Below are positions 3,932 to 42,601 of a DNA stretch of 64,000 nucleotides, piece after piece. The stretch covers positions 1,719 to 65,718 of the forward strand of contig JAFGRK010000032.1 in NCBI GenBank assembly GCA_016935175.1, given 5' to 3'. Origin of the DNA: Candidatus Woesearchaeota archaeon (GTDB taxonomy: Archaea; Nanobdellota; Nanobdellia; Woesearchaeales; SM23-78). The notes under the pieces are model-generated. The model did no database searches. It saw only the letters and a program-made list of their open reading frames with translations, and was not told the DNA's origin. Numbering within the stretch: the first letter of the stretch is position 1; each line of letters starts with the position of its first letter. The translations under genes were made by a program, and so were the position numbers.

Positions 3932-3940
3932 GACGGAAAC

Positions 3941-4098: not shown

Positions 4099-4148
4099 AC
4101 TTAATGTTAATATTAATCGATAATTTTATATATTCTCATTAGTCATAA

Positions 4149-4670: not shown

Positions 4671-4688
4671 TAAAGGGGAAAATAAACA

Positions 4689-6137: not shown

Positions 6138-6166
6138 CAATTAGAATTAAAAGAGGATAATCCATA

Positions 6167-7660
6167 ATGGTTGAACTAGCAAGGCTAACAAGCCCGGGAC
6201 GGGCAAGCTTCTCAAGGAAGGAGCTGATAGACAGGTACACCATCACAGTCAACAACATAGTAGTGGACATAAGCATCTATTCTGAGGAGGACAAGCCAGT
6301 CCCGGAGTACGTGGTATCAATAACCAATATCAGCGACGCCACCAAGATAATCCTTGAGAAGATAAGGCAGGAGTTCATCTCCAAGATGAACCTTGAGGAG
6401 ATAGAGAAGCTGGAGCAGAACGAACTGATCAATATCAGGCAGAGGTTCAAGGGAGAGATAAAGAAGCTAATCTTCAAGTACTTCCCCAAGGCAGATGACA
6501 CCACAGCCAACATGCTCATCAACTACCTGATAGAGGAAAACCTGGGGATGGGCAAGGTGGAAATACTGCTCCAGGACCCAGCGCTTGAGGAGATAGTCAT
6601 CAACAACCACAAGGAGCCAGTATGGATCTATCACAGAAGGCACGGCTGGCTGGTCACCAACATCAAGATAATATCAGAGGACAGGATAAGGCACTTCGCA
6701 ACCATGATAGGAAGGGATGTTGGCAAGGAGATAACCAACCTCAGCCCATTGATGGACGCCCACCTAATGACAGGAGACAGGGTCAATGCCACCTTGAACC
6801 CTATCAGCACCAAGGGGCACACAATAACCATAAGGAAGTTCTCAGCAGACCCGTGGACCATCACCAAGTTCGTCAAGGAAGGGGTCCTTAGCTATGAGGC
6901 AGCAGCCTTCATCTGGCTGGCAGTGCAGAACGAATTAAGCGTTCTCATAAGCGGAGGCACAGGAAGCGGAAAGACCAGCATGCTGAACGTCATAAGCAAC
7001 TTTTTCCCGCCAAACCAGAGGATTATCAGCATAGAGGACACCAGGGAGCTAACTCTCCCGGAAAACCTGCACTGGGTACCGTTGGAGACCAGGCTTCCCA
7101 ACCCAGAAGGCAAGGGGGGAGTCACAATGCTTGACCTGCTGGTTAACAGCCTGAGGATGAGGCCTGACAGGATACTGGTGGGAGAGATAAGGAGGAAAAA
7201 AGAGGCAGAAGTATTGCTTGAGGCCATGCACACAGGGCACTCAGTCTATGCTACCATACACGCCAACAATGCAGAAGAGGTCATCATGAGGCTCACCAAC
7301 CCGCCGATAGAGATCCCCAAGCCCATGATAGCATCACTATCGCTGATAGTCATCCAGAACAGGAACAGGAGGACAGGCAAGAGAAGGACTCTCCAGCTGG
7401 CAGAAGTGACCCCTAGCGGCGACGTCAAGGTAATCATGAAGCTCAACATGGTGAAGGACATCCTAGAGGACGCAGCCAAGTCAGATACTGTGATTGATAG
7501 GCTTAAGCTATACACAGGCATGAGTGAGGAAGACATATCAAAAGACCTCACAGAGAAAGCCAGGATACTGAGGTGGATGGTCAAGAAGAACATCTTAAAT
7601 GTCAACCAGATAGGAGTGGTGATAGCCAAGTACTACATGGGGACTCTCTACCTTGACTAA
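6167..7660 (+). CDS. Type IV pilus / archaellum-family secretion ATPase (GspE/VirB11/FlaI/PilB superfamily).
   Basis: Walker A ISGGTGSGKTS, an Asp-box/Walker B region RIISIEDTRELTL, and a His-box VGEIRRKKEAEVLLEAMHTGHSVYATIHAN. The 497-aa length is typical of FlaI/PilB-like ATPases. Confidence 0.9.
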   Translation: MVELARLTSPGRASFSRKELIDRYTITVNNIVVDISIYSEEDKPVPEYVVSITNISDATKIILEKIRQEFISKMNLEEIEKLEQNELINIRQRFKGEIKKLIFKYFPKADDTTANMLINYLIEENLGMGKVEILLQDPALEEIVINNHKEPVWIYHRRHGWLVTNIKIISEDRIRHFATMIGRDVGKEITNLSPLMDAHLMTGDRVNATLNPISTKGHTITIRKFSADPWTITKFVKEGVLSYEAAAFIWLAVQNELSVLISGGTGSGKTSMLNVISNFFPPNQRIISIEDTRELTLPENLHWVPLETRLPNPEGKGGVTMLDLLVNSLRMRPDRILVGEIRRKKEAEVLLEAMHTGHSVYATIHANNAEEVIMRLTNPPIEIPKPMIASLSLIVIQNRNRRTGKRRTLQLAEVTPSGDVKVIMKLNMVKDILEDAAKSDTVIDRLKLYTGMSEEDISKDLTEKARILRWMVKKNILNVNQIGVVIAKYYMGTLYLD

Positions 7661-7682
7661 AAAAATATTTAGGGGGGAATAA

Positions 7683-8492
7683 ATGACGCTCATAGACAAG
7701 ACAGATGCCAAGGCCACCCTGAAAAAAAAGCTCCACACAGCAGGCATCAACAAGAAGCCAGAGGAATTCCAGAAGCAGACAACTCGCGGGGCCATGATGG
7801 TAGGCTTGTGCATGGCAGCCCTTGGGTTCATGTTCGGCCAAAGGCAAGGAGGCCAAGGCCCAATCATGGCTATCCTTCTAGGGCTCACTTTCTTTGCAGT
7901 AGCCAAGTTCGTGATGAGCAAGTCAGTTGATTCTAAGATAAGCAAGAGGGCTAAGAGCATAGATAAGGATGTATTGTTCGCCGGCAGGTTCTTGCTCATA
8001 AAGCTCAACTCAGGCAAGCCCCTCATCAACTCGCTCACAGACGCCAGCCAGAGCTATGGCGTAGCCAACACTTATTTCAAGGACATAGTAAGGAACATAG
8101 ACCTGGGCACTCCTCTTGAGGATGCATTGGAAAAAGCCATGGACAACTGCCCATCAAAAAAGATGGGGAGAGTATTGTTCCAGATAAACAATGCCTTAAG
8201 GATAGGCATAGACGTGACCCAGAACCTGGAAGCAGTGCTGGAAGAGATAGCTAACGAGCAATTAGTTGAGATACAGAGATATGGGAAAAAGCTTAACAGC
8301 CTGACATTGTTCTACATGCTAGTGGCAGTGGTAGCCCCAAGCCTAGGGCTTACCATGTTCATGGTAGTCGCAGGATTAGTATCATTGGACATAGGCCCAG
8401 GAACTTTTGGAGTGTTCCTGCTATTCCTGATAATCCTTGAGCTAGTGTTCCTAAGCCTTTTCAAGAGCATAAGGCCTAACGTTAACATATAA
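7683..8492 (+). CDS. TadC/FlaJ/PilC-like polytopic membrane protein, first half (one T2SSF-like domain).
   Basis: Soluble T2SSF-like domain (FAGRFLLIKLNSGKPLINSLTDASQSYG...LEDALEKAMDNCP...QNLEAVLEEIANEQ) flanked by TM helices. Immediately downstream of the ATPase. Confidence 0.7.
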   Translation: MTLIDKTDAKATLKKKLHTAGINKKPEEFQKQTTRGAMMVGLCMAALGFMFGQRQGGQGPIMAILLGLTFFAVAKFVMSKSVDSKISKRAKSIDKDVLFAGRFLLIKLNSGKPLINSLTDASQSYGVANTYFKDIVRNIDLGTPLEDALEKAMDNCPSKKMGRVLFQINNALRIGIDVTQNLEAVLEEIANEQLVEIQRYGKKLNSLTLFYMLVAVVAPSLGLTMFMVVAGLVSLDIGPGTFGVFLLFLIILELVFLSLFKSIRPNVNI

Positions 8493-8534
8493 AAAAACTA
8501 ACAAAAAAAATTAACATAAAAAAAGCAAATAAAC

Positions 8535-9566
8535 ATGACAATCCAACTTTACCTTGAGGAATTTGGAAAAGCATTTGTGCCCAAGAAGATAAGACCAAAG
8601 CTAGGCAAATACCTGGCCAAGGCAGGAATAGACGAAGTGCCCTACAAGCTATTCGGGATAATGTTCTGGGTTGCTGCAGTAATAACTTATTTTGTGTACG
8701 TCCCCCTGCTCTACCCGCTCCTGAAGCAGCTGCACTTGTTCGTGTTCTTCATACTCACCTTCTTCTCATGGTTCCTGGTGCAAGTATTAGTTTCAGGCAT
8801 GATAGTGATGTCAACTTATTTCTACCTTAACATAACCATCTACCAGAGGACCAAGATATTAGAGGACATGCTCCCAGACTACTTGTCACTCGTATCAACC
8901 AACCTGAAAGGAGGGATGAGCTTTGAGAAATCCCTCTGGTCAGCTATCAAGCCAGAGTTCGGCATACTGTCCAATGAGATAGGATTAGTGAGCAAGAAAG
9001 TAGCCACAGGCAATGATGTGAGCGAGGCATTGCAGGAATTCGCCAACAAGTATGACTCGCCAGTCCTCACCAGGAGCATAGACCTGATAAAAGGAGAGAT
9101 CCTGAGCGGAGGCACCATTTCAGGAGTGATAGACAGCCTGGTGACCAATCTCAAGAAGACCAAGGCCTTAAGGCAGGAAATGGTAGCAGCCACCCTCACC
9201 TACATGATATTCATGGCAGTAATAGTCATAGTCATCATGCCAGCCTTGTTCGCGCTCTCAAAACAATTATTGATAATACTGCTCAAGTTCGGGGCTCAGG
9301 TAAGCTCAAGCTTCCAGGCAGCAGGGACCCAGAACGCCATGTTCAACTTCTCAGTGGCCAACATCGACCCCTTCCATTTCCAGATGTTCTCAGTAGGCGC
9401 CATAAGCATAATAGCAGTCTTCACCTCCATGATCATAAGCACCATAGAAAAAGGCGACATAAGGGGAGGGTTGAAATACATACCCTTGTTCCTGGTAGGC
9501 GCGGTAGTCATGTACTTCATCTTCAACTCCATACTAGGCTCAGTCATGAGCGGCATGCAAATATAG
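8535..9566 (+). CDS. TadC/FlaJ/PilC-like polytopic membrane protein, second half (second T2SSF-like domain). Together with 7683..8492 it forms a split FlaJ equivalent.
   Basis: T2SSF-like domain (YLSLVSTNLKGGMSFEKSLWSAIKPEFGILSNEIGLVSKKVATGNDVSEALQEFANKY) and multiple TM helices. Confidence 0.7.
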   Translation: MTIQLYLEEFGKAFVPKKIRPKLGKYLAKAGIDEVPYKLFGIMFWVAAVITYFVYVPLLYPLLKQLHLFVFFILTFFSWFLVQVLVSGMIVMSTYFYLNITIYQRTKILEDMLPDYLSLVSTNLKGGMSFEKSLWSAIKPEFGILSNEIGLVSKKVATGNDVSEALQEFANKYDSPVLTRSIDLIKGEILSGGTISGVIDSLVTNLKKTKALRQEMVAATLTYMIFMAVIVIVIMPALFALSKQLLIILLKFGAQVSSSFQAAGTQNAMFNFSVANIDPFHFQMFSVGAISIIAVFTSMIISTIEKGDIRGGLKYIPLFLVGAVVMYFIFNSILGSVMSGMQI

Positions 9567-9585
9567 GGCAGAAGCTATTGTAATC

Positions 9586-9681
9586 GCCAAAGCCAAGACC
9601 GTCGCAGCCTTGATATGCAACATTTGCGTTAGCAAATTTGCATGGCGCGGCGAGCGGTAGCGAGTAGGGCTTGGCTTTGGC
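9586..9681 (+). other. Nested hairpin element between the TadC-like gene and the first pilin gene.
   Basis: A 12-bp outer stem gccaaagccaag/cttggctttggc encloses an inner 12-bp bulged hairpin atgcaacatttgc-gtta-gcaaatttgcat. Confidence 0.4.
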
Positions 9682-9804
9682 AACTCATACAAATAGTAAG
9701 TGCATAAAAAACCAAAAACTTTAAATAAGGGAAACACAAGGGTAAGATAATAAAATAAAAAAAGACTTCCCGTCAATCAGAATTGAAGGTGAAGAGGTGA
9801 TTTA

Positions 9805-10296
9805 ATGAAAAAAGCACAAGCAGCACTTGAGTTCTTAACCACATACGGTTGGGCGTTCTTAGTGATATTGGTAATGATAGGCGCACTGGCATATTTCGGA
9901 ATCCTAAGCCCTAGCAGGTTCCTCCCAGAAAGATGCAACGTAGGGCCAGAGTTCTCGTGCGACGAGCACCAGGTCCTATCAGCTGGAACATTGAATATAA
10001 TATTCACAAACAATGTTGGCGATACAATCAACAGTGTTACAGTTACTGGTGCAAAATGGGCGCAGGAAACTCTACTTGATGGTGACGCGGATGGAGACAT
10101 TGATAATTGTGTAGATATAAGCGGAAACAGTTACAGGGCAGGAGACCCAATTACTGTAACATGCACATTCAACAACGCACTCTTCCCGCCTGAAGGCGCC
10201 AAGATGAAGTTCAACGTAGACTTAACATACATACCACAGGGCAAGACTTACACCAAGCCTTTAACAGCAGAAGTCTACACGGCACTGCAGCCTTGA
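9805..10296 (+). CDS. Archaeal type IV pilin (class III signal peptide); major pilin candidate.
   Basis: N-terminus MKKAQ|AALEFLTTYGWAFLVILVMIGALAYFG matches the archaeal pilin/archaellin-like prepilin consensus (KxxQAA.E.L..YGW). A TATA box 'ctttaaata' (9718-9726) and the SD-like 'ggtga' lie upstream. Confidence 0.8.
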   Translation: MKKAQAALEFLTTYGWAFLVILVMIGALAYFGILSPSRFLPERCNVGPEFSCDEHQVLSAGTLNIIFTNNVGDTINSVTVTGAKWAQETLLDGDADGDIDNCVDISGNSYRAGDPITVTCTFNNALFPPEGAKMKFNVDLTYIPQGKTYTKPLTAEVYTALQP

Positions 10297-10372
10297 GATT
10301 ATTTCTTTTTTTAATATTCTTTTCTTTTTCCTTTTATTTAATTTTTGCACAAGCCAAGATAGTAAGAGCACC

Positions 10373-10870
10373 ATGAAAACAAAAAAGAGGATGAGCAAAG
10401 GCCAGGCAGCCTTGGAATACATCACTACCTATGGCTGGGCTATACTCGCAGGCATACTTGCCGTAGGAGCAATGGCTTATTTCGGCTTCCTAAGCCCTAC
10501 CAAGCTTTTGCCTAATGAGTGCAGCTTTGGCAAGCAACTGGAATGCTCAGAGTTCAGGATTGTCCGCGATGGAGCTAATGCAAGGGCTGATGTGTTCTTC
10601 AGGAATAACTTTGGCAAGCCCATCAACATCTCTGCAGTTGAAGAGGATGCTGAAGGCATAAACATAGGCAGCCCTAGCGGGGACCTGCCTATAACAATAG
10701 ATTCTGGGGCAAAGCAAGAGATATACATAGACTTAATTGATGATGACAAGTACTCAAGAGGGGATAAGAGGCAGGCTAACATCATGATCAGGTTCCACAG
10801 GTCTGACATAGACGGAGCCCCGGTTCACAACTTGTCAGGCTATGTGTTCACTACAGTCATGACTCCTTGA
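10373..10870 (+). CDS. Archaeal type IV pilin paralog (class III signal peptide).
   Basis: N-terminus MKTKKRMSKGQ|AALEYITTYGWAILAGILAVGAMAYFG. Similar size and architecture to the 9805..10296 pilin. Confidence 0.8.
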   Translation: MKTKKRMSKGQAALEYITTYGWAILAGILAVGAMAYFGFLSPTKLLPNECSFGKQLECSEFRIVRDGANARADVFFRNNFGKPINISAVEEDAEGINIGSPSGDLPITIDSGAKQEIYIDLIDDDKYSRGDKRQANIMIRFHRSDIDGAPVHNLSGYVFTTVMTP

Positions 10871-20224: not shown

Positions 20225-21013
20225 TTAGTAGAATCCTACGACATAATAGCCGCCTGACAAGGGCTCTGAAATCCTTGCATAATAGGCAGGCTCATCTGAG
20301 TAAACATCTCTTGCATAGGCTCCGTAGCTATTGTAGCTGCCGTAGCCGTAGCCATAGTTAGAGTAGCTTGGATAACCATAGCTTCCGAATGAGCTGTAGC
20401 TAGTGTATCCATAATCGTTATATCCATATCCATAATTGTTATATCCATAGTTGCTTCCATAGCTGCTATAGTAATTGTTGTAATGGTTATTGTTGTAATA
20501 GTTGTAACTAGGATAATTGTAAGTCAAGACTCCATATGACTGGTATGCTTGAGGATGGTCAAAGTATGTCCCTCCAAGGTTGTTGTCCACGTAGCCTGTG
20601 TATCTTCCACCCTCATAGTCAGCATAGTACTTGACTGCTGATGGCTGGTACAGGCTTGAGGTGTAGCCTCTCGTGTCTGTGTAATAGGCTTCTCCTTGGA
20701 GTGGAGGGTTGTATTTTGCCTGGAGCACTTGCGGAGAGACATAGTAGTAGCTTGCTGGCCTAAAGCCAAAGCTCTTCACCAGGTTAGGCTCATAGATGTA
20801 TTGCTCATAGCCTTCGAGGTCATTTATCTTGATGTAGTCTTCCCTGTATTCCAGGTACCTGTCCCATTCTTCCTGCCTTGCCGCAGTCACATTGAATATT
20901 ATTGCGCTGGCTAGCTGGGATAGGCTCAAGGCTAGAACCGTGCATAATATTGCTAGGATTATCCTCTTATTCATTGAAATCCCCCTGATTCCCAGTATAA
21001 TGTGCTTTGCCAT
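20225..21013 (-). CDS. Secreted Tyr/Gly/Ser/Asn-rich low-complexity protein (GYGYN-type repeats).
   Basis: Signal peptide MNKRIILAILCTVLALSLSQLASA; the likely true start is an internal Met at about 20974. The C-terminal half is NYGYGYNDYGYTSYSSFGSYGYPSYSNYGYGYGSYNSYGAY. Confidence 0.6.
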   Translation of the reverse strand: MAKHIILGIRGISMNKRIILAILCTVLALSLSQLASAIIFNVTAARQEEWDRYLEYREDYIKINDLEGYEQYIYEPNLVKSFGFRPASYYYVSPQVLQAKYNPPLQGEAYYTDTRGYTSSLYQPSAVKYYADYEGGRYTGYVDNNLGGTYFDHPQAYQSYGVLTYNYPSYNYYNNNHYNNYYSSYGSNYGYNNYGYGYNDYGYTSYSSFGSYGYPSYSNYGYGYGSYNSYGAYARDVYSDEPAYYARISEPLSGGYYVVGFY

Positions 21014-21138
21014 TTAAATAGTTTTCGCTTTTTAACCACTAAATAGTAGTTATAAAACTTTAGAGTGTGCATGAATAGCACTATAATCAGGAATAATGAA
21101 AAAAAGCAAGAAAGAACAAGGAAAAAGCAAGAAAAAGA

Positions 21139-22083
21139 TTACTTGTTCACATTGAAAACATTGCTCAAGTCAATCTTGGACTCAGGCATCTTCTCGCGCT
21201 CCTTCTTGCGCTCCTCCTCAGACTTCTCCAACTGCTCTTTAGTATTGAGCTCTTTCACAGAGAAATCAGGGTCGCCCTCGCTGACTTCTTCATCATCACA
21301 AGGCTCATCAGCGCTTTCTGATTTAGCAGGCTCTTGCTCAGGCTCAGCTTGCTGCTCAGGCTCATCAGCAGGAACAGGCTCTTCAGAAGCTTCAGCCTCA
21401 GCAGGCTCCTCAAGCTCAGCTTCCTGCTGCTCAGGCTCCTCAACAAGAGCAATCTCCTCAGGCTCTGCTGCTTCCTCCACTACTGGTTCTTCTGTTGTTT
21501 GCGACTCTGCCGAAAACTCAGAAGCATCAGCTTCTGTCGGTTGAGGCTCTTCATCCGCTGGCTCTTCATTGACATCCTCAATAGGCTCAGTCTCCAAAGT
21601 CTCAGGAATAGGGACTTCAACTGGCTCCTCAAGCTCAGCTTCCTGCTGCTCAGGCTCCTCCGCAGGAGCACTCTCCTCAACAAGCTCAGCCTCGCTAACC
21701 TCTTCCTTGATCTCAACAGCATCATCCTCATCAACAGGCTCACCAGCAAGCTCAGGCTCATCAGGGATGAGCTCCTTCAAAGGCTTGTTGACATCAATCC
21801 CCTCTAAATTAATTCTCACATCACCCCTGCCCCTTGCAATGTTAGCAGTTAGCTGCTCAACCTGCTTGTGAGCAAGCTCGACCTCAGCATCCTTCTTCCG
21901 ATCACCAAGCATCTGCCTCTCCTTCTCAGAGAAGTCATCAGCAACCTTCTTGCCAGTCTCAAGCATGTCAGCAGCCATCCTCCTAGCCTCAAAATCCGAG
22001 GAGGCCAGCTTGTTCTTGCGAAGCGTAGCAGCCAGCTTCTCAATCTCACCATCACGCTTAGACTTAATGTTAAAATCCGCCAT
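21139..22083 (-). CDS. Protein with a ~100-aa N-terminal domain followed by a long acidic E/P-rich tail carrying internal repeats.
   Basis: The repeat EEPEQQEAELEEP occurs twice (DNA repeats at about 21395-21440 and 21595-21660). No TM segments. First gene of a minus-strand operon with the two Tyr-rich proteins. Confidence 0.55.
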   Translation of the reverse strand: MADFNIKSKRDGEIEKLAATLRKNKLASSDFEARRMAADMLETGKKVADDFSEKERQMLGDRKKDAEVELAHKQVEQLTANIARGRGDVRINLEGIDVNKPLKELIPDEPELAGEPVDEDDAVEIKEEVSEAELVEESAPAEEPEQQEAELEEPVEVPIPETLETEPIEDVNEEPADEEPQPTEADASEFSAESQTTEEPVVEEAAEPEEIALVEEPEQQEAELEEPAEAEASEEPVPADEPEQQAEPEQEPAKSESADEPCDDEEVSEGDPDFSVKELNTKEQLEKSEEERKKEREKMPESKIDLSNVFNVNK

Positions 22084-22181: not shown

Positions 22182-22285
22182 TGGGGTTGCGAAGATTTGA
22201 ACTCCGATTACGTGGCCCCGAACCACGGGTGATAATTGCTCCAGCAGCCCAAAAGGGCTCACTGACCAAGTTACACTACAACCCC
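22182..22285 (-). tRNA. tRNA-Pro (anticodon CGG), with a probable ~30-nt non-canonical intron in the D-arm region.
   Basis: Minus strand: acceptor GGGGTTG/CAACCCC plus discriminator A; intact anticodon arm CGTGG-TTCGGGG-CCACG; T-arm CGGAG-TTCAAAT-CTTCG. Total length is 104 nt. The D-stem GTG(T)/(T)CAC can form only if about 30 nt (GTGAGCCCTTTTGGGCTGCTGGAGCAATTA, plus 22233-22262) are removed. A TATA-like 'ttttaaaca' lies ~25 nt upstream on the minus strand. Confidence 0.55.
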
Positions 22286-22385
22286 GATGGACTAATGAAG
22301 CTTATGAATGTTTAAAAGTGTTTTGTTTCACGATATGAAAGAAAATTACATAAAAGCAAAAAATATATGAATTCCAAAATTCATC

Positions 22386-24371
22386 GTGTATAACGTAAAA
22401 ATTTGGTGGAGTTTAATGTATTACAAATCAATAAGCTCATACTTTGCGTTATTCATAATAATAATCTTTCTTACAAGCTGCACAATTAACGATTACGATA
22501 AAAAAACTACGGCAACAGATCAATCTGGAAGCGATGATTGTTTAAAGCTTACCCGAGCTTTAGAAAGCGATTTTAAAAATAACGGAGATGGTTTTGCTTC
22601 ATTAGCAAAACTTCAAAATATTAATCGTAGCTATGTAATTTTATCTGAAACACGTAAAAATGAAACAGTAGGAGGTATAATAAGAGGAATTCACATATTT
22701 AACCAAAATATAGAAGGAGTGGACGGGAGATATGCAGAAGAAGAGACTATCACTCGTTGCCTTGTTGAATTCGATCTTGGGAAAAAATCAGCGCTTATTC
22801 TTTATGATGATGGAGATATTGATATCGATGTAAGCGAGCTCAGCCATAAATATAAAGTTGGAACTTTCTATACTTTCAATATGTTTGATCACTTCGCAGA
22901 TGATGGTCATAGTTGGAAAGGACCTTCTTTAAATGAATATGCTAAGTGCAATAATGATAAAAAGCTCAAGGAATATTTAGATGAGCGTCGTTTGCCAACC
23001 AAAAAAGATTGCACTTCAGATGCTGATTGCGGATTATATAATAATACGTATTTTGGGATTGTTACTGCTTGTCATAAAGAGGATTGGGACTGCATTGAGA
23101 AAGCAGAACAAAATAATAGAGGCTCCTATGGCCATGGTCCCGGCCCTGCTCCAAGAGAAAGCTTTTATGTCATTTGTCAAGGAGGAGAATGCATAAAAGA
23201 AATGAATTGTAGCGTATGTAACTCTGAAATTACCAGAAAGAATTGCGCTGAAGTCCAGTACGTTACTGGCGGTTCCTGGCAATGCGCACGTATTGGTAGC
23301 TGCGGCTGCAAGATTGGCTGTTCTAATGAATCTGATGGTGTTTGTCCTCATCTTCTGTGCGAGGATTATGTAGATGACACTGACAGAGAAATTCCTTATT
23401 CCATTTGCTGCTATCATAAAGAATACTTTGATGCTGACTGCTGCCAAGCAGCAGGAAAATACTGGATTAAAACTAACCAGGGATACGTTTGTTCTGACAA
23501 GGACTATAACCCTGGCTGTAATCCAGGGCAAGAATGTAGCGCAACCTCTGATGGATGCTGCCCCAATTGGTGTATTATAGGCACAGATGCAGATTGTTGC
23601 AAACAAGCAGGAAAATACTGGCTGACCAACTCCTGGGGAGGGAGCGCGTGCTACAATGCTGATTACAACCGCGGGTGCTCACCAAGTAATGATTGTGAAA
23701 CAAAAGGAGACGGATGCTGCCCAAACTGGTGCTCTGCAGGCTCAGATATAGACTGCTGCAAGCAGGAAGGTAAATATTGGCTAACAGAGCTTTCAGGGTC
23801 AGAAGGGTGCTATGACTCTCATTACAGTAAAGGATGCTCGCCAGAAAGCGAATGTGAGATTTTCGGGGATGGATGCTGCCCAAACTGGTGCTCTGCAGGC
23901 TCAGATGCAGACTGCTGCAAACAAGCAGGAAAATACTGGCTGACCACCTCATGGGGAAGTTATATTTGCTCTAATCAGTCGAACTACAACTCTAGCTGTT
24001 TGGCAAACAGTGATTGTGAAATCGTTGGGGATGGTTGTTGCCCAAGTTGGTGCGCCTTGGCCATAGATATCGATTGCTGCCAACAAGCAGGCGGAAACTG
24101 GCAAGAAGCAGAATATGGTTTCTCATGCTTTTTAAAAAACCAGGAAAACAGAACAGCCCAAACCAAAACATGCAAGTTATCCTTACCTGACGGTGAATGT
24201 CCTAGCTGGTGCCAGTATTATGAAGATGCAGACTGCTGCAATGAGGTAGGAGGTTATATTATCCCAGGAAACTATGAATTTGGCCCTGCGTGCGCAATAG
24301 ACTGCCCAAAAGTAGATTGTGACGATTCACTCAATCACGGTTTCATACACTCGGTTATCTCATCAAAATAA
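22386..24371 (+). CDS. Cysteine-rich tandem-repeat protein (6 repeats of ~52 aa, 8 Cys each) with a lipobox-like signal (FLTSC); putative surface lipoprotein.
   Basis: Repeat consensus D-x-DCC-[KQ]-Q-A-GKYWLT...C....Y..GC.....C....GDGCCPNWC.AGS. Two DNA copies are near-identical (about 23712-23790 and 23870-23950). AT-richer than its surroundings. N-terminal hydrophobic segment ending LTSC. Confidence 0.7.
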   Translation: MYNVKIWWSLMYYKSISSYFALFIIIIFLTSCTINDYDKKTTATDQSGSDDCLKLTRALESDFKNNGDGFASLAKLQNINRSYVILSETRKNETVGGIIRGIHIFNQNIEGVDGRYAEEETITRCLVEFDLGKKSALILYDDGDIDIDVSELSHKYKVGTFYTFNMFDHFADDGHSWKGPSLNEYAKCNNDKKLKEYLDERRLPTKKDCTSDADCGLYNNTYFGIVTACHKEDWDCIEKAEQNNRGSYGHGPGPAPRESFYVICQGGECIKEMNCSVCNSEITRKNCAEVQYVTGGSWQCARIGSCGCKIGCSNESDGVCPHLLCEDYVDDTDREIPYSICCYHKEYFDADCCQAAGKYWIKTNQGYVCSDKDYNPGCNPGQECSATSDGCCPNWCIIGTDADCCKQAGKYWLTNSWGGSACYNADYNRGCSPSNDCETKGDGCCPNWCSAGSDIDCCKQEGKYWLTELSGSEGCYDSHYSKGCSPESECEIFGDGCCPNWCSAGSDADCCKQAGKYWLTTSWGSYICSNQSNYNSSCLANSDCEIVGDGCCPSWCALAIDIDCCQQAGGNWQEAEYGFSCFLKNQENRTAQTKTCKLSLPDGECPSWCQYYEDADCCNEVGGYIIPGNYEFGPACAIDCPKVDCDDSLNHGFIHSVISSK

Positions 24372-24540
24372 TATTCATGGACTCTGCGGGACTTTCATCA
24401 GATTTTCAGATAGCAAAAAAAGGGGACTGAGCAAAGCTTTGCTTTGCGAATGTCTCCTAGTTTTTACCAGATTCAAAAAAAGCTTTGCTTTTGATGCTCA
24501 AAAACTTTTGTTTTTGATGTTTCCTAAAAATCTGTTTTGA

Positions 24541-24652
24541 ACCCGCGGCCCCCACATTGCGAATGTGGTGCTCTTTCCCGCAACAAGGGAAACTCAAAAA
24601 GGTTTCCTTTTTGCTGTACCAGGCTGAGCTAAGAGCCCATAAGAACACGGGT
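24541..24652 (-). other. tRNA-like locus (scrambled or multi-intron tRNA, or a tRNA pseudogene): D-arm, anticodon arm (GUU) and T-arm are recognisable, but there is no simple acceptor pairing.
   Basis: The minus strand reads GGGCTCT-TA-GCTC-AGCCTGGTA-CAGC, then a hairpin, then TTCCC-TTGTTGC-GGGAA, then CCACA-TTCGCAA-TGTGG. A candidate 7-bp acceptor ACCCGTG/CGCGGGT exists only if extra segments are excised. Confidence 0.25.
24587..24613 (+). terminator. Hairpin plus T-tract terminator candidate downstream of the Cys-rich gene.
   Basis: gggaaactcaaaaaggtttcc followed by ttttt. It overlaps an alternative hairpin tttccc-gcaacaa-gggaaa. Confidence 0.35.
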
Positions 24653-24666
24653 TATAATCAGCTCTT

Positions 24667-27326: not shown

Positions 27327-28685
27327 CTATTTGGCTGTAGGGTCCATTACTCTCCCTATGAACAGGATGTTGCCTGTCTCCCTTTGCTGTATGATGAAGA
27401 TGAACGGGTGGTCTGCTCGGAATTGGTTAAATGGACCGGCTGATGTTTCTCCCATAATAATTACTGTTGCCGCAGCAGCTTCTGTGCCTTCTTCGTTCAC
27501 ATCAACAAACGCCTGGTGGAATACATCAGTGATAACAAGTTTTCTTGAGCCATCCATACCAGAGAAATCTGCATTGGTAAAGGCCGAAGGCATTCCCATC
27601 TCCTTAAACGTATCTACCATGGAATACTTGGTCTCAAACGTGAATTTAGGCATATAGACGTCAATCTGCCTCTCGCTAAGCAAGCCTCTCCATTGGCTTA
27701 GCTTATCTGCTGTGAGAATAGACTCAATTGAGCTCAAGTCATAATCAGGCTCTTTTGGCAGCAAGACTAGCATTGACAATTCTTCTCCTTTGTAAAGCAT
27801 CTCCAATATCTGGAGCTCATCAGCCTCAGCATAGCTGAACTTTGCCTCCTTATCATCCCTGACCATCATCTTCACAGTGACTGTCTTGTCAGGGCTTACT
27901 CTGAATTGGGCATCGCGAGTGTCCTTTTTCTCAAACTCCTTCACCCATGTGCCTTTGAAATAAATAGCATTTGATAATACCAAGCGGGTCAAGTAAGTTA
28001 TCGCGCCTTCAGGTATGATATCCTTTATCTTGTCTTGCGTCTGCTCCTCAACCCAGTCATTTATTATTACTCTTGATTTCTCAGTCTCCAAAACAAAATC
28101 AAGGTTAGTGGCTTTTCCTCCATAATACTTTTCTACCGTGCCTAAGTATTCTGGTAAGAAAGAATAGTCTTTATGAGTCCACAAAGAATTGGCAGTGCTT
28201 AGCTGGTAATCCTTGCTGCCAGAGTTCAAATTATTGTAGATCCTGGCAAAAGCCGACCTCCTAGTTAGATCATCTGCTGGGAAGTGGAACACTTGCTGCA
28301 TCTCCTCTGCAGTCTGTCCTCTTGCGCCTTCATACGTCATGGCAAAGGCTGTTGAGATGCTATAGGGAGAGAAGAAGAGGTTCTTGCCAGCATTCTCAGT
28401 TTCTGAATTCAGTTTTGAGTAAAGCTCAAGAGCGAACTGGTTATTAGCATTGATAACACTCTTAACCCCTTCTATCGTTGCTTCGCTATCATCAAGCACA
28501 GACAGCGGTGCCCAAGGGGGGTTTGGCCCTGTTGTAGAATGAGGTCCAAATAAAAACCAAAATAATATTCTGCGAGTAGGGGAAAACAAGAAAAATATTA
28601 TTAACAACATGATTAAGACTATTAACGATATGATTATTGTCATTAATAATCTTTTTTTATCCATAAAGGTGAAATGATATAGCAC
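27327..28685 (-). CDS. Serpin (serine protease inhibitor) with an N-terminal membrane anchor or signal.
   Basis: Reactive-centre-loop hinge EEGTEAAAATVIIMGETS. Serpin signature FRADHPFIFIIQQRETGNILFIGRVMDP. N-terminal hydrophobic segment LMTIIISLIVLIMLLIIFFLF. Confidence 0.85.
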   Translation of the reverse strand: MLYHFTFMDKKRLLMTIIISLIVLIMLLIIFFLFSPTRRILFWFLFGPHSTTGPNPPWAPLSVLDDSEATIEGVKSVINANNQFALELYSKLNSETENAGKNLFFSPYSISTAFAMTYEGARGQTAEEMQQVFHFPADDLTRRSAFARIYNNLNSGSKDYQLSTANSLWTHKDYSFLPEYLGTVEKYYGGKATNLDFVLETEKSRVIINDWVEEQTQDKIKDIIPEGAITYLTRLVLSNAIYFKGTWVKEFEKKDTRDAQFRVSPDKTVTVKMMVRDDKEAKFSYAEADELQILEMLYKGEELSMLVLLPKEPDYDLSSIESILTADKLSQWRGLLSERQIDVYMPKFTFETKYSMVDTFKEMGMPSAFTNADFSGMDGSRKLVITDVFHQAFVDVNEEGTEAAAATVIIMGETSAGPFNQFRADHPFIFIIQQRETGNILFIGRVMDPTAK

Positions 28686-35176: not shown

Positions 35177-38137
35177 GTGGAAAAAAAGAAGAACCAAAAT
35201 CTGGAGACAATTCTGAAGCAAAAAGAAGTTCCTTCTGCTGTTGAATTAGTTAAGAAAATGAGCATCGACTCAGAAACAAGCCAAGAAATGATTCGGCAAC
35301 TCCAGCATCTTGATGATGAAAGAGAGAAGAAAATAATTATCGGAAAAAAAGCATTAGAAGTGGGAGATCTCCACACAGCCCTCTTCGCATTGTCTAGCGC
35401 TGAATTCAAAGATGATAAAGTATATTCTGAACTGGGAGACCGGTTTGTTGATTACGCTGAAAAAATGTTTCATGAGGACCCCTTCATCTACGAAGGAGGG
35501 TATTTCAACGCCGAGATTGCATATAACCAAATTAAGGATGAAAATTTAAGAAAACAAAAACATAATGAAGCGGCAAAAAAAGTTCTTGCCATGAGTGAGA
35601 GATATGTATTAGGAAAATTCAGGTTTTATAAGGACGCGGCAGGGTTTTATCATTACGCCAGAGAAGATATGAAGCTTGTCGAACTCGGAGATGAAGCGTT
35701 GAATGCTGCACTTAAGACAACCGACCGCTATCTCTTCCCAAATGTAATCTTTAATGATACCATGATAATATACGGGCTCATTAACGATAAAGAGCTTTTT
35801 GAAAAGAAAGTAAGGATGACTCTTTACAGGCTGATGGAGCAAAAATATATTAATTTTGAATGGGTCGGCAAATGTCTCATAGCGTCCAGGATGGGGAAAG
35901 AAGATGAAATAGGGTGGGACAAGGACACTTTGGCCAAGATATCTGAGCTTCATTACAGCAAAAGCCCAAAAGATAACATCCTAGGCTATCTCATCCCGGA
36001 GGCCAAAGAGCTAACTGACAGCGAATTAGAAGCTCTTGCAGATGAAGTTTTTGAGCACGAAATCAAAAAACCAAATAAAGAAATCGATCTGGTATTCGGA
36101 AAGAAAGAAGAAAAAAGAGAGCTACAGCAAGCAAAATCCTTGTACCGAAAGATCAAAAGAAAGTTATCTGCCGAAAAACTGAGAAAGCTAGGAAAAAGAG
36201 CAGAGAAAAAGAAAGAATTCTCATTTGCCATGTGGGCCTATAAAGAACTTAATTCTGAAAAAGACATGGATAGGATTGTGAAAAAAGCTATTGAAGACGG
36301 ACAATTCAAAGAACTGCTGTATATCTTAGATGAAAGAGCAACTCACAATAATAAGGGTTTAGTATACGACGAAATAAGGCAAAAAGGGCTTTTGGATGGG
36401 TTTAATAAGGCCTTTGAGAAGAATAAGGTTAGTGACGCATATTTCTTAACAATGCACCTAATGCCTGAGCTTGTAAGGGATAAATTATTGCAAATAGGAG
36501 ATTCCAAGCTTGAAAAAGCAGAGAATAACGGCGATTATGATTATGTACAAGACATCTACAAAAAAGCAGAGCATACCCTAACCGCTGAAAAATTAAGAGA
36601 AATCGCTAAAAAGCTAAAATTATCTGGAGAGAAAGAATTAAGCGACAAAGTAATAGAGTGCGCTCAATATATTGAAGGTCTAGGCCCTGATAAGTTTCCT
36701 CTTATCAAAGAAATTGAGAAAAACCCGCAAAACATACTATTCTGGAATATCAGAAGTTCTATTGAGGATTCTGAGAATTACAGGACAGCTGAAGACCCAG
36801 AACGAAAAGCTGATTTCTTAAAATGGAAAAAAGAATCACTTGAAAGAATCGCGGCATTAGCAAAGGTTAATGACATTTCTAGAGTGGATCAGATTATTGA
36901 TGAGTTTGATCATTATGAAAATAGCCAAGCGCTTATAGATTTCGGGCTTAAGGCATTTGAAAAAAAACAATATGGCTTCAGTTATACGGCCTTAAAGAAG
37001 GCAAAGGATTTCAGGAACTTGCGGAAGTTAGGAAAAGTATTGCTAAAACAAAAGAATTATTCAAATGCGGATTATTTCTTAAAGGCTGCAGGAGGAGAAG
37101 GCAATGCATCACTAGTGTCCAAAGCGCTTAAAGAAGATTTGTTGACTGCAATACGACAAGATATGCCCAAAGGCTTGGATTTCCTACTGAACATACTTAG
37201 AAATGAAGAGCTGAAAAAACATTTTAATCTTGAAACAGAGCAAAAACAAGAAACTCTAGGCCATATTAGCGTGGTTTCTTCCTTGAGTCTGAAAACAGGG
37301 AAGCTTCTCGGAGATTTCAACATAGCAGTAAAAGCCGATGAATACAGGCTGACTGGGAGCCAATCACTAGATAAAGAAGTCATGGTGTACAAAAAATTAA
37401 GGACTAACGACTTATCCATGCCTAAAGTGCTTAAGCTAGACAAGGTAGATGAGTTTTATGTTGGCGTTTTTGAATATTTGCCAGGAAAATTGCTTATTGA
37501 GCAAACAATAAACTCTGATGTGGTTGAAAGAGTCGTGAAAGAAACAAAAAAGATTCAGAGAATTCTTGCAACTAGCCTAAATCCTGATGAGAAAACGATA
37601 TTCCTTGAAGAAGGATTTGGCAAAGATGACTTCTACAGCCATAAAATAGCTGCCAGGTTCAAGGAAAAGATGCGGATTGACCTGAATGAAGAGCTATTAA
37701 GGCCTTTGGATACTTATTTGCTAAGTGAAGATGTCAAGAAATCAAGAACAGTGGTCACTGACAGGAACCCTACTAACATCATATACAATCCGAAAACAGG
37801 CCAGCTGCAGATGATTGATTTCAATGCCGCAAGGGTAAGCCTGCCTCAAGAGGACTGGGCTTTCTTCATAGACGACCCAAGGCTAAAGACAAGCCTAACA
37901 AGGGATGAGATGATACAAGCCTACGCAGAAAACCCACAGGACACAACCACCTTCCACTACATAGCAACCTACAGGAACTTGATACAGACAGCCATGAGAT
38001 GGGTAGACGAACCACAAGACAAGCAAATAAGCTACCACAACCTACAAAGAGCCAAGGAATCAGCAAGAAAAATAGGGCTGACAGAGCTAGTACAAGAGAT
38101 AGAGCAAAAAATAGAGCCGATGTACAAAGGATTATAA
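35177..38137 (+). CDS. Large (986 aa) alpha-helical repeat protein with a C-terminal APH/protein-kinase-like fold domain.
   Basis: The C-terminal DRNPTNIIYNPKTGQLQMIDFNAARVSLPQEDWAFF resembles the APH/ChoK catalytic loop plus DFG-like region. The N-terminal 650 aa are helical with no TM. Confidence 0.6.
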   Translation: MEKKKNQNLETILKQKEVPSAVELVKKMSIDSETSQEMIRQLQHLDDEREKKIIIGKKALEVGDLHTALFALSSAEFKDDKVYSELGDRFVDYAEKMFHEDPFIYEGGYFNAEIAYNQIKDENLRKQKHNEAAKKVLAMSERYVLGKFRFYKDAAGFYHYAREDMKLVELGDEALNAALKTTDRYLFPNVIFNDTMIIYGLINDKELFEKKVRMTLYRLMEQKYINFEWVGKCLIASRMGKEDEIGWDKDTLAKISELHYSKSPKDNILGYLIPEAKELTDSELEALADEVFEHEIKKPNKEIDLVFGKKEEKRELQQAKSLYRKIKRKLSAEKLRKLGKRAEKKKEFSFAMWAYKELNSEKDMDRIVKKAIEDGQFKELLYILDERATHNNKGLVYDEIRQKGLLDGFNKAFEKNKVSDAYFLTMHLMPELVRDKLLQIGDSKLEKAENNGDYDYVQDIYKKAEHTLTAEKLREIAKKLKLSGEKELSDKVIECAQYIEGLGPDKFPLIKEIEKNPQNILFWNIRSSIEDSENYRTAEDPERKADFLKWKKESLERIAALAKVNDISRVDQIIDEFDHYENSQALIDFGLKAFEKKQYGFSYTALKKAKDFRNLRKLGKVLLKQKNYSNADYFLKAAGGEGNASLVSKALKEDLLTAIRQDMPKGLDFLLNILRNEELKKHFNLETEQKQETLGHISVVSSLSLKTGKLLGDFNIAVKADEYRLTGSQSLDKEVMVYKKLRTNDLSMPKVLKLDKVDEFYVGVFEYLPGKLLIEQTINSDVVERVVKETKKIQRILATSLNPDEKTIFLEEGFGKDDFYSHKIAARFKEKMRIDLNEELLRPLDTYLLSEDVKKSRTVVTDRNPTNIIYNPKTGQLQMIDFNAARVSLPQEDWAFFIDDPRLKTSLTRDEMIQAYAENPQDTTTFHYIATYRNLIQTAMRWVDEPQDKQISYHNLQRAKESARKIGLTELVQEIEQKIEPMYKGL

Positions 38138-38138
38138 G

Positions 38139-39791
38139 ATGAGCCTTGAAGACAAAATCTCAAGAAAGGAGTTGTGGCTTAATGAATTAAAGAAGCTACA
38201 GTCCTGGCTTGAGGAATTCGCTGAAAATAACAAACCAGAGAATTGGCTCAAAAGGCTGCTTGAAGACTATGACAAAAGAAATAAAGGCAAAAAATTTACT
38301 TCTTCGGATGAGCTAAGTGAACAGCTTCCGCTAAAAAAAAGGATTAGCAAGTCGTATATACGCAAACACTCCAAACAAAACTATGATGCAAACCGAAGCC
38401 ATAGCAGCTTCGATACAGAAAAGGTCGATCGCTCGGTTGGCTACAACCTATTTCAGTTTTTTCAATTAATACGAAACAAGGACCTTACGGAGCACCCTCT
38501 TGGCAGAAGAGTTAAATTTTTGAGAGGTTACAAGCTTGAAGAGGAGCATTACGTCCAGTTGTACTTTAAATTTAAAGAGCATTTTGCTTCTCGCGGGCTT
38601 ACTGAGAAAAAACTGGGTCAGTACCATAAGCATTTCTCTGTGAGAGATATTATTAACTTGTATATGGTTGAAGATTACGAGCCGAAAATAGCCAACCAAT
38701 ACGCAGAAAATTTCAACACAGCAGTTGAAGCTATGCAATTAATAAAAGATAGGTGCCCACTGGACATAGCATTAAAATACAATCCTCGATTTAACGGCAT
38801 TGAAAGGGCTAGGCTTTTTAAGACCGGGTGCTTACCTGAAGAAGCAAATGAATATTATAAGAAATTAAAAGGAGATATCTTATCAGATCTATATCTGCTG
38901 GGAGTGAATAATGAGAATTTTAACATAAAGATGCAGAAAAGGTTTCATAATCTACTGTCGGATTTTATTCCGGGCATATATCGAGATCATTCGTCAGAAA
39001 AATCAAAAGCAAAGTTCATAGCCTCAGGATTCAATGCGATGATAGTTCAAATAGACTACGGCATGGGATCTGATAAGCCTAACGAAGCACTTAAAATTAG
39101 CGAAAAAATCCTGAAAGAGAGGCGTTTGCATGAAAGGCTTCAGTTAGAAATGGGCTATAGGAAAGAAAATTTAAGGAATGTCATAAGATGTCATGGAACA
39201 TACGTACGAAATTGGGATGAGAATGAAGCATTAAGATTAGAGTATATCGAGGGGGAGACACTGGAAAGAATCCTTGTAAAGAAAGGGGCACTAGACGAAA
39301 AAACCACAATACTGCATGTCAAGGATATTCTTCATGGGTTGGAAGAACTGAGAAAAGCAGGAATTTATCACTCAGATATACACGATAAAAATATAATGGT
39401 CGACTATGTTAATAGGCGCACATTGATAATCGACCTAGGAGAGGCAACAACAGAGCCGCATGAAATAAATAAAGGCAACAGGAGATATGGAGGCAATAAC
39501 GACCTTATATCTTTAGGCCAGCTTATCTACAAGATGTACACAGGGCACAATCTCTTCCATGAGAAACCAGGAATAACAAGTGACCTTGACAAGGAAGAGA
39601 TAAGAAGGGAGAGGGAAGAAACATATGCTAGTCCCATAAAGAAGGGGAATATGCTGGCAAAAGTAAGGCAAGATCTCCCAAAAGAACTTGGGAAGATTAC
39701 AGCCACCATGCTAGATGACGACCTTTGGACCCAGCCGGATATTGGCAGAGTCAAGAAGGTTCAACAAATGCTAGAGAAGTATGCCAAATAA
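38139..39791 (+). CDS. Large protein with a C-terminal eukaryotic-like Ser/Thr protein kinase domain.
   Basis: HRD-like loop IYHSDIHDKNIMV. DFG-like IIDLGEAT. Activation/P+1 region GNRRYGGNNDLISLGQLIYKMYTG. Starts 1 nt after the stop of the preceding kinase-like gene. Confidence 0.65.
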   Translation: MSLEDKISRKELWLNELKKLQSWLEEFAENNKPENWLKRLLEDYDKRNKGKKFTSSDELSEQLPLKKRISKSYIRKHSKQNYDANRSHSSFDTEKVDRSVGYNLFQFFQLIRNKDLTEHPLGRRVKFLRGYKLEEEHYVQLYFKFKEHFASRGLTEKKLGQYHKHFSVRDIINLYMVEDYEPKIANQYAENFNTAVEAMQLIKDRCPLDIALKYNPRFNGIERARLFKTGCLPEEANEYYKKLKGDILSDLYLLGVNNENFNIKMQKRFHNLLSDFIPGIYRDHSSEKSKAKFIASGFNAMIVQIDYGMGSDKPNEALKISEKILKERRLHERLQLEMGYRKENLRNVIRCHGTYVRNWDENEALRLEYIEGETLERILVKKGALDEKTTILHVKDILHGLEELRKAGIYHSDIHDKNIMVDYVNRRTLIIDLGEATTEPHEINKGNRRYGGNNDLISLGQLIYKMYTGHNLFHEKPGITSDLDKEEIRREREETYASPIKKGNMLAKVRQDLPKELGKITATMLDDDLWTQPDIGRVKKVQQMLEKYAK

Positions 39792-39833
39792 TTATTGGTA
39801 AGCTTAAAATAAGTCCGTTAACTAATGAACTGC

Positions 39834-40748
39834 CTATCCTGATGTCAAGGTAAAGAATGGGCCTGTCATGTCCACAATTTTTCTCACAATCGTGGCAAGG
39901 TAATGAACCACCACAAAATCATCTGGAGTGATCTTGTTCCTTATGTCATACAACACTTCAAAAAGCAGCTTGTCCTTCTTTAGGTTGATGTCTTTTATCT
40001 TGCTCTTGTCCTTGCTGTAAAAGGCATGAAAGAACAATTCAAACAAGTCATTAGTTTCCTTAAAAAAAGCAAGGCACTCCTTGCTGAACTTCTTGGGCTT
40101 TGCCTCTGAGCCAAACCTGTATATGTAATCATACTTATTAGACGCCTTTTCAAGAATCTGGACAAGCATGTACCTGAATATAAGCAAGTCGTCATTTCGG
40201 TGGTACTTATTAAGGATTCGTTTGCAGAAATCAGCGTATCTCGTCACCATAAAACGAGCATAATTAACACTATTATAGTCCTTGAAATCATTGTTCCCGA
40301 CAGCCCCATATGTTTTCTGGCTGTTTTGGAGTATCAACTGAAAAATCTTCCTTACCATGTTATCATACTCAGAATCTAACCCGATAGCGACGTTTTTCAG
40401 CACACAATGCTTGGAATCAACCTCCATCATTTCCAAGCCAAGGAGAGTATCCACTATCTTTTGAATCTCAGGTGTCAGGTCCTCTTTTTCATAAATGACT
40501 TCTATCTCATCATAACCTTTCTTATAGGCATGCGATATTATGGCTCTCATGTAAGAGTGGTTGCCCCGGTCAACCTTAAGAGAGAACTTGCTTAAGGTTA
40601 GGCCTGTCTTACCTTGTAGCTCTAACACAGAGCCATTTTCATTCACCTCAACCTCATCTCCCTTCTTCAGAGCGTACTTCTGCGCCCACTTGCTCGGCAA
40701 GCTTACAGTAAGCGTGTTCTGGCCTACCAGGTTGATTTTTCGCTTCAT
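39834..40748 (-). CDS. AbrB/SpoVT-domain transcriptional regulator with a PhoU-like C-terminal helical domain.
   Basis: The N-terminal swapped-hairpin motif KINLVGQNTLTVSLPSKWAQKYALKKGDEVEV. The remainder is alpha-helical. A BRE/TATA 'cgaaaagtatttata' lies on the minus strand upstream. Confidence 0.55.
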   Translation of the reverse strand: MKRKINLVGQNTLTVSLPSKWAQKYALKKGDEVEVNENGSVLELQGKTGLTLSKFSLKVDRGNHSYMRAIISHAYKKGYDEIEVIYEKEDLTPEIQKIVDTLLGLEMMEVDSKHCVLKNVAIGLDSEYDNMVRKIFQLILQNSQKTYGAVGNNDFKDYNSVNYARFMVTRYADFCKRILNKYHRNDDLLIFRYMLVQILEKASNKYDYIYRFGSEAKPKKFSKECLAFFKETNDLFELFFHAFYSKDKSKIKDINLKKDKLLFEVLYDIRNKITPDDFVVVHYLATIVRKIVDMTGPFFTLTSG

Positions 40749-40916
40749 CTTACCCTGAATATACTTCAGCTAATATAAATACTTTTCGCTTTCATAATTA
40801 CATAATTACTAGTAATAATTATAATTGACAAAAGTATATATATTTTACCGCTAATACTATCCGTAAAGGTTTCAGGCTTTGAAGAAAGCCTTCAAGAAAC
40901 CGGGAGGACATCCAAA

Positions 40917-41369: not shown

Positions 41370-41613
41370 TTATAAATCGTTATATAAGGTATAAGAAAAA
41401 ATTATATATATTATCCAAACAATACATAACGTAAGAATTCCGAAGATGACACTCAAAATTTCAGATTTGGCGGAGAGAACGCGGAAAATGTTAGCGAGGG
41501 TATAAAAGAGACCTGAGCAAAGCAAAAAAGATAGGCGAGAAAAACCAAAAAGAAAATCTCGCCAAGACACCGGCAACGGGAGAGTATTACACAAATAAGA
41601 ATTAGCGAGAGCT

Positions 41614-42588: not shown

Positions 42589-42601
42589 ACGAGATGAAAA
42601 A

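Follow-up and report, generated by a model that had tools for sequence, protein, structure and literature searches.

The locus considered here raises two questions: whether a cysteine (Cys)-rich gene lying between two tRNA sequences is the cargo of an integrated element, and what its repetitive product might do. The gene (positions 22386 to 24371, + strand) lies in a stretch of 64,000 nucleotides of contig JAFGRK010000032.1 from a Candidatus Woesearchaeota archaeon, and this entire stretch is hereafter called the window. Our answer, which we hold with slightly better than even confidence, is that the gene encodes a vertically inherited lipoprotein whose distal array of six disulfide-locked units would act as a binding or adhesion rod, and that the flanking tRNAs are ordinary residents. 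What appears to be new, and modestly interesting, is the repeated unit: a rare, undescribed, disulfide-rich module of DPANN archaea and Candidate Phyla Radiation (CPR) bacteria, found here in a six-unit array on what is probably a lipoprotein.

The probable lipoprotein gene and its repeat array

The open reading frame (ORF) is intact and comprises 661 amino acids (aa) when counted from a GTG codon, as reported in the initial annotation of this DNA, although the ATG at position 22416 is the more likely start and would yield a product of 651 aa. We prefer this codon because a Shine–Dalgarno-like GGTGGAG (22405-22411) is located 5 nucleotides (nt) upstream of it, and because the sole full-length homolog, P0002, aligns from its own lipobox. 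The GGTGGAG sequence resides in an AT-rich (26% GC) divergent intergenic spacer (22286..22415) that links the coding region to an upstream tRNA-Pro. The protein is 100% identical to GenBank entry JXB28_05925, a hypothetical protein of Candidatus Woesearchaeota archaeon, which agrees with the earlier view that the DNA derives from a DPANN-type archaeon. An archaeal chromosome is likewise confirmed by window genes for a proteasome subunit, FttA/aCPSF1, ribosomal proteins L10e and S6e, and NOG1. In GenBank, the product is annotated as 550 aa beginning with an internal GTG at 22719, and the signal peptide and lipobox are therefore lost. The upstream ATG, the GGTGGAG that precedes it, and the homolog alignments support a longer product, and there is a practical lesson in a database start codon that removes a signal peptide.

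The predicted signal peptide (22416..22481, +; MYYKSISSYFALFIIIIFL-TSC) begins with a positively charged n-region, continues with a hydrophobic h-region, and ends with L-T-S-C, which fits the lipobox consensus [LVI][ASTVI][GAS]C. The putative lipidated Cys is residue 22 when counted from the ATG at 22416, or residue 32 in the 661-aa numbering. This lipobox-like FLTSC had been recognized previously, and a lipobox is present in four of four family members: FLTSC in the window protein and in P0002, whose N-terminus is of the same type, LFSSC in P0032, and LSGC in P0063. No second N-terminus of lipobox type occurs within the window. Thus, the protein is probably a lipid-anchored surface lipoprotein. 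With a Cys content of ~9.6%, a secreted-type N-terminus, and tandem Cys-rich repeats, it also conforms to the proposal that the gene encodes a disulfide-rich extracellular repeat protein.

Downstream of the lipobox is an orphan N-terminal domain of ~280 aa (22479..23327, +; residues ~32-314) that consists of an alpha/beta part followed by a Cys-rich part. Only three relatives (P0002, P0032, and P0063) were found among 5.8 billion clusters and 1.84 billion representatives, and two of these (P0032 and P0063) carry the domain without the repeat array. No match was detected in Pfam, NCBIfam, or the Protein Data Bank (PDB), and a profile search returned the known members alone. The AlphaFold2 (AF2) model computed from the four-sequence alignment is unusable, with a predicted local distance difference test (pLDDT) score of 49.5, and the Foldseek matches obtained with this model were discarded as meaningless.

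The C-terminal half contains six D-x-D-C-C anchors, at residues 349, 401, 454, 507, 561, and 614. Their spacing of 52-54 aa (a period of 159-162 nt) bears out the description of six tandem repeats of ~52 aa. In its natural register, the unit reads C-x5-C-x6-CCPxWC-x7-DCC-x3-GKYW-x(n)-C. The initial annotation assigned eight Cys to the repeats, which is accurate for units 1-4 (23517..24170, +; individually 23517-23675, 23676-23834, 23835-23996, and 23997-24170). These units are supported by the pattern, AF2 modeling, and homolog matches. The outer two units are degenerate. One precedes the canonical units (23319..23516, +; DGVCPHLLC, then an insertion, then DADCCQAAGKYW), and the other is followed by a C-terminal cap and the stop codon (24171..24371, +).

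Two DNA segments in this array (about 23712-23790 and 23870-23950) had been singled out as near-identical, and they do share 84% identity over ~80 nt with one exact run of 36 nt. However, whole repeat units are only 45-69% identical to one another in DNA, and Tandem Repeats Finder reports no array for the region. This level of divergence indicates that the repeat expansion is old, rather than the product of recent expansion or slippage as had been suggested. The ortholog P0002 has seven D-x-D-C-C anchors compared to the six of the window protein.

The module and its carriers

A phmmer search with a 124-aa repeat segment of the window protein yielded 109 domain matches in 65 other proteins, with E values down to 7e-36. 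Nevertheless, the family is rare, since an exhaustive phmmer search of the whole protein against 1.84 billion representatives recovered only 54 proteins at E<=1e-3. An AF2 model of two units (units 2-3, built from a 47-sequence alignment) reached a mean pLDDT of 91.2. In this model, each unit is composed of an irregular loop of ~24 residues, a short helix over the sequence DCCKQ, and a beta-hairpin formed by KYWL/GCY.

Structure prediction and profile searches on the repeat had been proposed as checks on its novelty, and neither associates this well-modeled unit with a known family. No family was matched at E<=10 by the whole protein in either Pfam or NCBIfam. When 47 individual module instances were compared with Pfam, only scattered single-instance matches to unrelated families were returned (best E 0.009), none of them recurring. 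Sequence and profile searches of the PDB gave no significant match, and Foldseek found no neighbor of the two-unit model in the PDB (best E 2.2, template modeling score <0.2) or in BFVD. The motif strings of the module were not met in a relevant context in the literature, and the 146 candidates collected by a module profile search were uninformative. These results uphold the view that the repeat fits no known Cys-rich family, and they indicate that the module is a real, autonomous, and previously undescribed extracellular domain.

Judged from its carriers, the module is common to DPANN archaea and CPR bacteria and is located in secreted proteins. The named archaeal carriers are Woesearchaeota, Pacearchaeota, Nanoarchaeota/Nanoarchaeia, and Aenigmatarchaeota, and a strict DNA pattern search for the module identified five DPANN loci. 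The bacterial carriers are a family of Parcubacteria proteins annotated as ‘peptidoglycan-binding.’ One representative, P0023, is encoded on a bacterial contig where it adjoins genes for a Mur ligase, a Peptidase_S11 protein (D-Ala-D-Ala carboxypeptidase), and MraY. All partner domains are extracellular, and include Peptidase_S8 with FG-GAP and PEGA, Kelch/PD40, CARDB, Big_7, Kre9_KNH, fn3, Dockerin_1, PG_binding_1, and a prepilin-type N-terminus. Among the 65 proteins, the module is situated no more than 45 residues from the C-terminus in 34. A hydrophobic signal or anchor is found at the N-terminus of most carriers, and in none is the C-terminus hydrophobic. The smallest carriers consist of one transmembrane helix and one module of ~35 aa, and the unit is thus an autonomous domain that is usually membrane-distal.

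P0005 joins the module to an N-terminus of prepilin type (GFGLIELVVV). Among P0005 and P0064-P0066 are proteins of 83-135 aa that carry a single module copy behind one transmembrane helix. The prepilin fusion and the proteins with little more than a helix and a module are the most direct hints of a displayed binding unit. One could extend these hints to a broader proposal, in which the ‘CPxxC...GSDxDCC’ unit of ~35-53 aa represents a new disulfide-knotted, possibly Ca2+-stabilized fold that crosses the boundary between archaea and bacteria, is specific to the two ultrasmall, episymbiotic radiations (DPANN archaea and CPR bacteria), and acts as a determinant of host or glycan attachment displayed at the distal ends of lipoproteins, proteases, and proteins resembling pilins. 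We regard this proposal as tentative and, on balance, doubtful. If it is true, few carriers would have expanded the unit into such an array, the Woesearchaeota protein with its six units being among them.

The Cys content of the module varies in an orderly manner. The 166 motif instances in the 65 proteins are built on a basic unit of six Cys. Where the CCP doublet supplies its second Cys, an additional Cys is found upstream in 66 of 67 cases, and the Cys of GKCW is always paired with an additional downstream Cys. Because Cys are gained in pairs, units hold 6, 8, or 10 Cys and never an odd count. This covariation argues for disulfides rather than metal sites, and a canonical unit probably has about four disulfides. 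The conserved residues other than Cys are three Asp (DG...D-x-D), one Pro, and two Gly. Two of the three Asp are strictly invariant, and the Asp of DG is present in at least 90% of the instances. We speculate that the acidic loop carrying these residues might bind Ca2+.

Flanking tRNA genes and chromosomal setting

Neither ARAGORN with default settings nor Rfam at its gathering threshold reports a tRNA anywhere in the window, and Rfam at both gathering and permissive thresholds gives no real RNA match in the gene region. Even so, both tRNAs can be reconstructed. As had been annotated, a tRNA-Pro occupies positions 22182..22285, and it is found there on the minus strand. It is interrupted by a non-canonical intron of ~30 nt in the D-loop region (exons 22285-22263 and 22232-22182, with junctions uncertain by 1-2 nt). 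When this insertion is removed in silico, ARAGORN recovers a clean cloverleaf with the anticodon CGG. The alternative parse offered by ARAGORN with its -i option, a TGG anticodon and an intron at the canonical position, was rejected: it requires a D stem made entirely of wobble pairs and an 8-nt variable loop, and its supposed anticodon hairpin varies in a relative in which the CGG arm is invariant. This relative is represented by a 10-kb contig (L001), whose tRNA-Pro exons are identical but for one compensatory T-stem pair (A:T to G:C) and whose intron hairpin differs. This combination of exon identity, intron divergence, and compensatory change favors the CGG parse. The L001 copy (5713-5866, -) also carries an extra 31-nt T-loop intron at position 59/60 that is missing from the window copy, so two fairly close relatives do not have the same intron content.

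On the other side of the gene, the initial annotation described a scrambled, tRNA-like remnant at 24541-24652. This sequence corresponds instead to exons 1 and 2, the first two-thirds from the 5′ end, of a tRNA-Ala(CGC) gene that is intact and occupies positions 24378..24638 on the minus strand (exons 24638-24617, 24573-24536, and 24391-24378). Two non-canonical introns interrupt the gene, one of 43 nt in the D-loop and one of 144 nt in the T-loop (59/60). The RNA spliced in silico forms a perfect cloverleaf in ARAGORN that includes the alanine identity pair G3:U70. Its 3′ exon (TCCCGCAGAGTCCA, 24391-24378) is located six bases past the stop codon of the Cys-rich gene. The same 3′ exon (CCCGCAGAGTCCA) occurs unchanged in L001 directly after the stop codon of the ortholog, where the L001 contig ends.

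An unconstrained minimum free energy (MFE) fold of the 261-nt tRNA-Ala precursor pairs the acceptor, anticodon, and T stems. The MFE folds of both precursors retain these three stems with the introns extruded as helices, whereas the register of the bulge–helix–bulge motifs is not fixed by them. The T-loop intron of tRNA-Ala ends with CTGA-N4-CTGATGA, which comprises a D-box-like and a C-box-like word and has no Rfam match.

Collectively, these reconstructions indicate that neither flanking tRNA is an integration scar; each is an intact resident gene that contains non-canonical intron sequence. That tRNA genes of DPANN archaea can be disrupted and elude predictors has been documented (PMC5829648). 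The window genes share with the multi-intron tRNA genes of DPANN and TACK archaea (PMC5829648, PMC4090602) the presence of introns in the D-loop and at T-loop position 59/60, the occurrence of several introns per gene, and the failure of standard predictors to find them. There is no difference in kind, although, at 144 nt, the T-loop intron is long, and the two relatives differ in which introns they have. It follows that intron-laden DPANN tRNA genes, invisible to default predictors, can pass for integration scars.

Comparison with L001 bears directly on the origin of the Cys-rich gene. This contig encodes P0002, which is 45% identical to the window protein. There, the same tRNA-Pro, again interrupted by intron sequence, comes before the ortholog, and the tRNA-Ala 3′ exon comes directly after it. 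The five genes upstream, which encode an AP_endonuc_2 protein, a nucleotidyltransferase, and three hypothetical proteins, are collinear between the two sequences with identities of 48-82%. The sole difference is the presence of two extra genes in L001 (Flavin_Reduct and EamA; 4722-5665) on the far side of the tRNA-Pro. This collinear synteny leads us to conclude that the gene is a vertically inherited, old resident of the chromosome and not a recent island.

An integrated island was the original explanation for the locus, with the gene as the cargo of a small AT-rich element inserted at a tRNA and a tRNA remnant marking the far border. Several features do resemble tRNA-targeted genomic islands. 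The gene is located between two tRNA sequences, and its GC content at third codon positions (GC3) is 0.35, compared to 0.50 and 0.70 in the immediate neighbors. In this local sense, the gene is AT-rich as claimed. However, its overall GC content of 0.414 corresponds to a z score of only -0.8 (-1.7 for GC3), and 12 of the 56 window genes have a GC3 below 0.42, among them those of a 12-kb block that encodes ordinary cytoplasmic enzymes. The dip is strongest in the N-terminal third of the gene (0.28). Moreover, the ortholog in L001 does not differ in GC3 from its neighbors, which speaks against an islet of foreign composition. Unlike a typical island, the locus is bordered by two complete tRNAs of different identity, the supposed remnant being a whole tRNA-Ala rather than a piece of tRNA-Pro. 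A comparison of the borders for att-like direct repeats revealed a longest common word of 9 nt, which is within the range expected by chance from shuffled sequences. No tRNA fragment is duplicated within the window, and the interval between the two tRNAs has no integrase, the Cys-rich gene being its only real ORF. Given these observations and the synteny with L001 over six genes and both tRNAs, we consider integration at a tRNA to be extremely unlikely.

Additional features of the window and of L001 deserve mention. The two extra L001 genes are situated between the gene for an acidic protein and the 3′ end of tRNA-Pro, and thus represent an indel at a tRNA 3′ end, but on the side opposite to the Cys-rich gene. 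In the window, positions 20225-22083 (-) encode two unusual neighbors without a Pfam match, a 262-aa signal-peptide protein rich in Tyr, Asn, and Gly, and a 314-aa, very acidic protein with Glu/Pro repeats. Both are conserved in L001 (49% and 55% identity, respectively). GC3 values range widely in the window, from ~0.32-0.41 in a low block to 0.6-0.7 at the top. The low block spans 12 kb (35177-47191; GC3 0.32-0.41, with exceptions of 0.54-0.66 at 39834-40748 and 40917-41369) and encodes an APH-like protein of 986 aa, a protein kinase of 550 aa, PfkB, an M20 peptidase, a SLOG protein, and an aromatic amino-acid lyase. Located 3 kb downstream of the Cys-rich gene is a full-length serpin gene (27327-28685, -; 452 aa; Pfam Serpin E 1.9e-121) in this DPANN archaeon. 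At 2430-10870 (+) is a cluster of the type IV pilus/archaellum type, with a T2SSE ATPase (6167-7660) and two T2SSF membrane proteins (7683-9566). In this cluster, four high-GC3 genes without a Pfam match come before these components, and two ORFs of ~165 aa that could encode pilins come after them.

Proposed function and comparison with known systems

The most likely function of the array, based on its architecture, is membrane-distal binding or adhesion. In the mechanism we envision, the protein would be exported by the Sec route, after which cleavage at the lipobox and lipidation of the new N-terminal Cys would tether it to the membrane. The orphan domain of ~280 aa would follow this anchor, and the six tandem copies of the ~53-aa module would constitute the membrane-distal, C-terminal half. 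Oxidative folding could then install about four disulfides per unit, such that each module would comprise an irregular loop, a short helix, and a beta-hairpin with four probable disulfides and, possibly, Ca2+ held by the three conserved Asp. The resulting array might be a rigid, protease-resistant rod whose conserved Trp and Tyr residues would meet a binding partner, either a glycan or a protein, carried by a host cell or an envelope. The role as an adhesin or host-interaction factor that was originally put forward remains plausible.

Some considerations count against this mechanism. Adhesion is deduced from architecture, whereas the disulfide map and the Ca2+ site are deduced from covariation and invariant residues. 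No homolog of AliA, VKOR, or DsbA was found among the roughly 40 of 56 window genes that are annotated, and no MdbA-like protein was seen among them either. In favor of the mechanism, DPANN archaea are predicted to be rich in lipobox proteins and AliA (PMC12462473), and an MdbA-like oxidoreductase and VKOR, which bear on extracellular disulfides, are enriched in CPR bacteria (bioRxiv 10.1101/335083). Also unfavorable is a recent survey in which other ‘dark’ archaeal domains with eight Cys were taken to bind metal (PMC13607799).

This last precedent, together with the high Cys content, the CC doublets, and the anaerobic lifestyle presumed in the initial annotation, could be taken to mean that the eight Cys of each unit bind Zn or an Fe-S cluster without forming disulfides, in which case the product would be a metal-binding or redox surface protein. 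We judge this to be improbable. The carriers are all secreted, the accessory Cys come and go strictly in pairs, and neither His nor Asp takes the place of missing ones, which are replaced by hydrophobic or polar residues. Furthermore, the module has no conserved His and shows neither CxxCH nor ferredoxin-type spacing. A different proposal accepts the disulfides but assigns the module to a known lineage, as a divergent hevein/CBM18-like member that binds polymers of N-acetylglucosamine such as peptidoglycan or chitin. The motif CC[TS]Q.G.C, which prompted this comparison, resembles the hevein sequence CCSQWGWC, the aromatic residues are conserved, and the module co-occurs with PG_binding_1 in Parcubacteria proteins. 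However, homology was rejected when hhalign of the module profile against hevein returned a probability of 0.3% over six aligned columns, Pfam Chitin_bind_1 matched none of the 47 instances, and Foldseek found neither hevein nor wheat germ agglutinin. This assignment is therefore quite improbable.

A third alternative retains both the disulfides and the novelty of the module but denies it a binding role. Disulfide-knotted tandem modules commonly serve as rigid spacers, and the array might likewise be an inert stalk, spacer, or envelope scaffold, leaving the orphan N-terminal domain as the functional part. Consistent with this possibility, the N-terminal domain defines the family and exists without repeats in two of its members. 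What is difficult to reconcile with a stalk is its location. The array is distal to the lipid anchor rather than between the anchor and the N-terminal domain, and the extreme C-terminal placement of the module in about half of the carriers (34 of 65), which are N-terminally anchored or secreted, is likewise the wrong place for a stalk. For these reasons, we grant the spacer function only a minority chance and continue to favor distal binding by the array.

How does the module compare with better known domains? Like the small Cys-rich modules of the hevein/CBM18, EGF, TNFR, and knottin types, it measures 35-53 aa, contains 6-10 Cys (a CC doublet among them), occurs in tandem in secreted proteins, and has secondary structure limited to a short helix and a beta-hairpin. 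In contrast, it exhibits no sequence, profile, or Foldseek similarity to any of these. It is distinguished from them by its spacing, C-x5-C-x6-CCPxWC-x7-DCC-x(13-16)-C, and by an invariant acidic G-S-D-x-D motif. The conserved Asp (DG...D-x-D) within a disulfide-clamped, irregular loop recall the acidic Ca2+ cages of LDL-receptor class A and thrombospondin type 3 repeats, although Pfam gives no match of the module to Ldl_recept_a or TSP_3.

At its N-terminus, the window protein shares with the archaeal lipobox lipoproteins of the AliA/AliB pathway in Haloferax volcanii (PMC12462473) an n-region, an h-region, and a matching lipobox, L-T-S-C. It differs from haloarchaeal lipoproteins by having no twin-arginine motif, and export would thus proceed by Sec rather than by the Tat route that is common in haloarchaea. 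With the ‘dark’ archaeal 8-Cys domains (PMC13607799), the module has in common a small size, an archaeal origin, eight conserved Cys, and the lack of a Pfam or ECOD assignment. Compared by description only, the module differs from them in being extracellular and in having Cys that vary in pairs.

The value of the module lies in what it may contribute to the study of cell surfaces. A module that can be folded in silico with confidence, has not been described before, spans two domains of life, and sits at the outer ends of surface proteins is a clonable candidate for binding studies, and it would also be a useful marker in annotating the surface proteomes of DPANN archaea and CPR bacteria. Both groups are thought to live attached to host cells, and to our knowledge the molecules that mediate this attachment are almost unknown.

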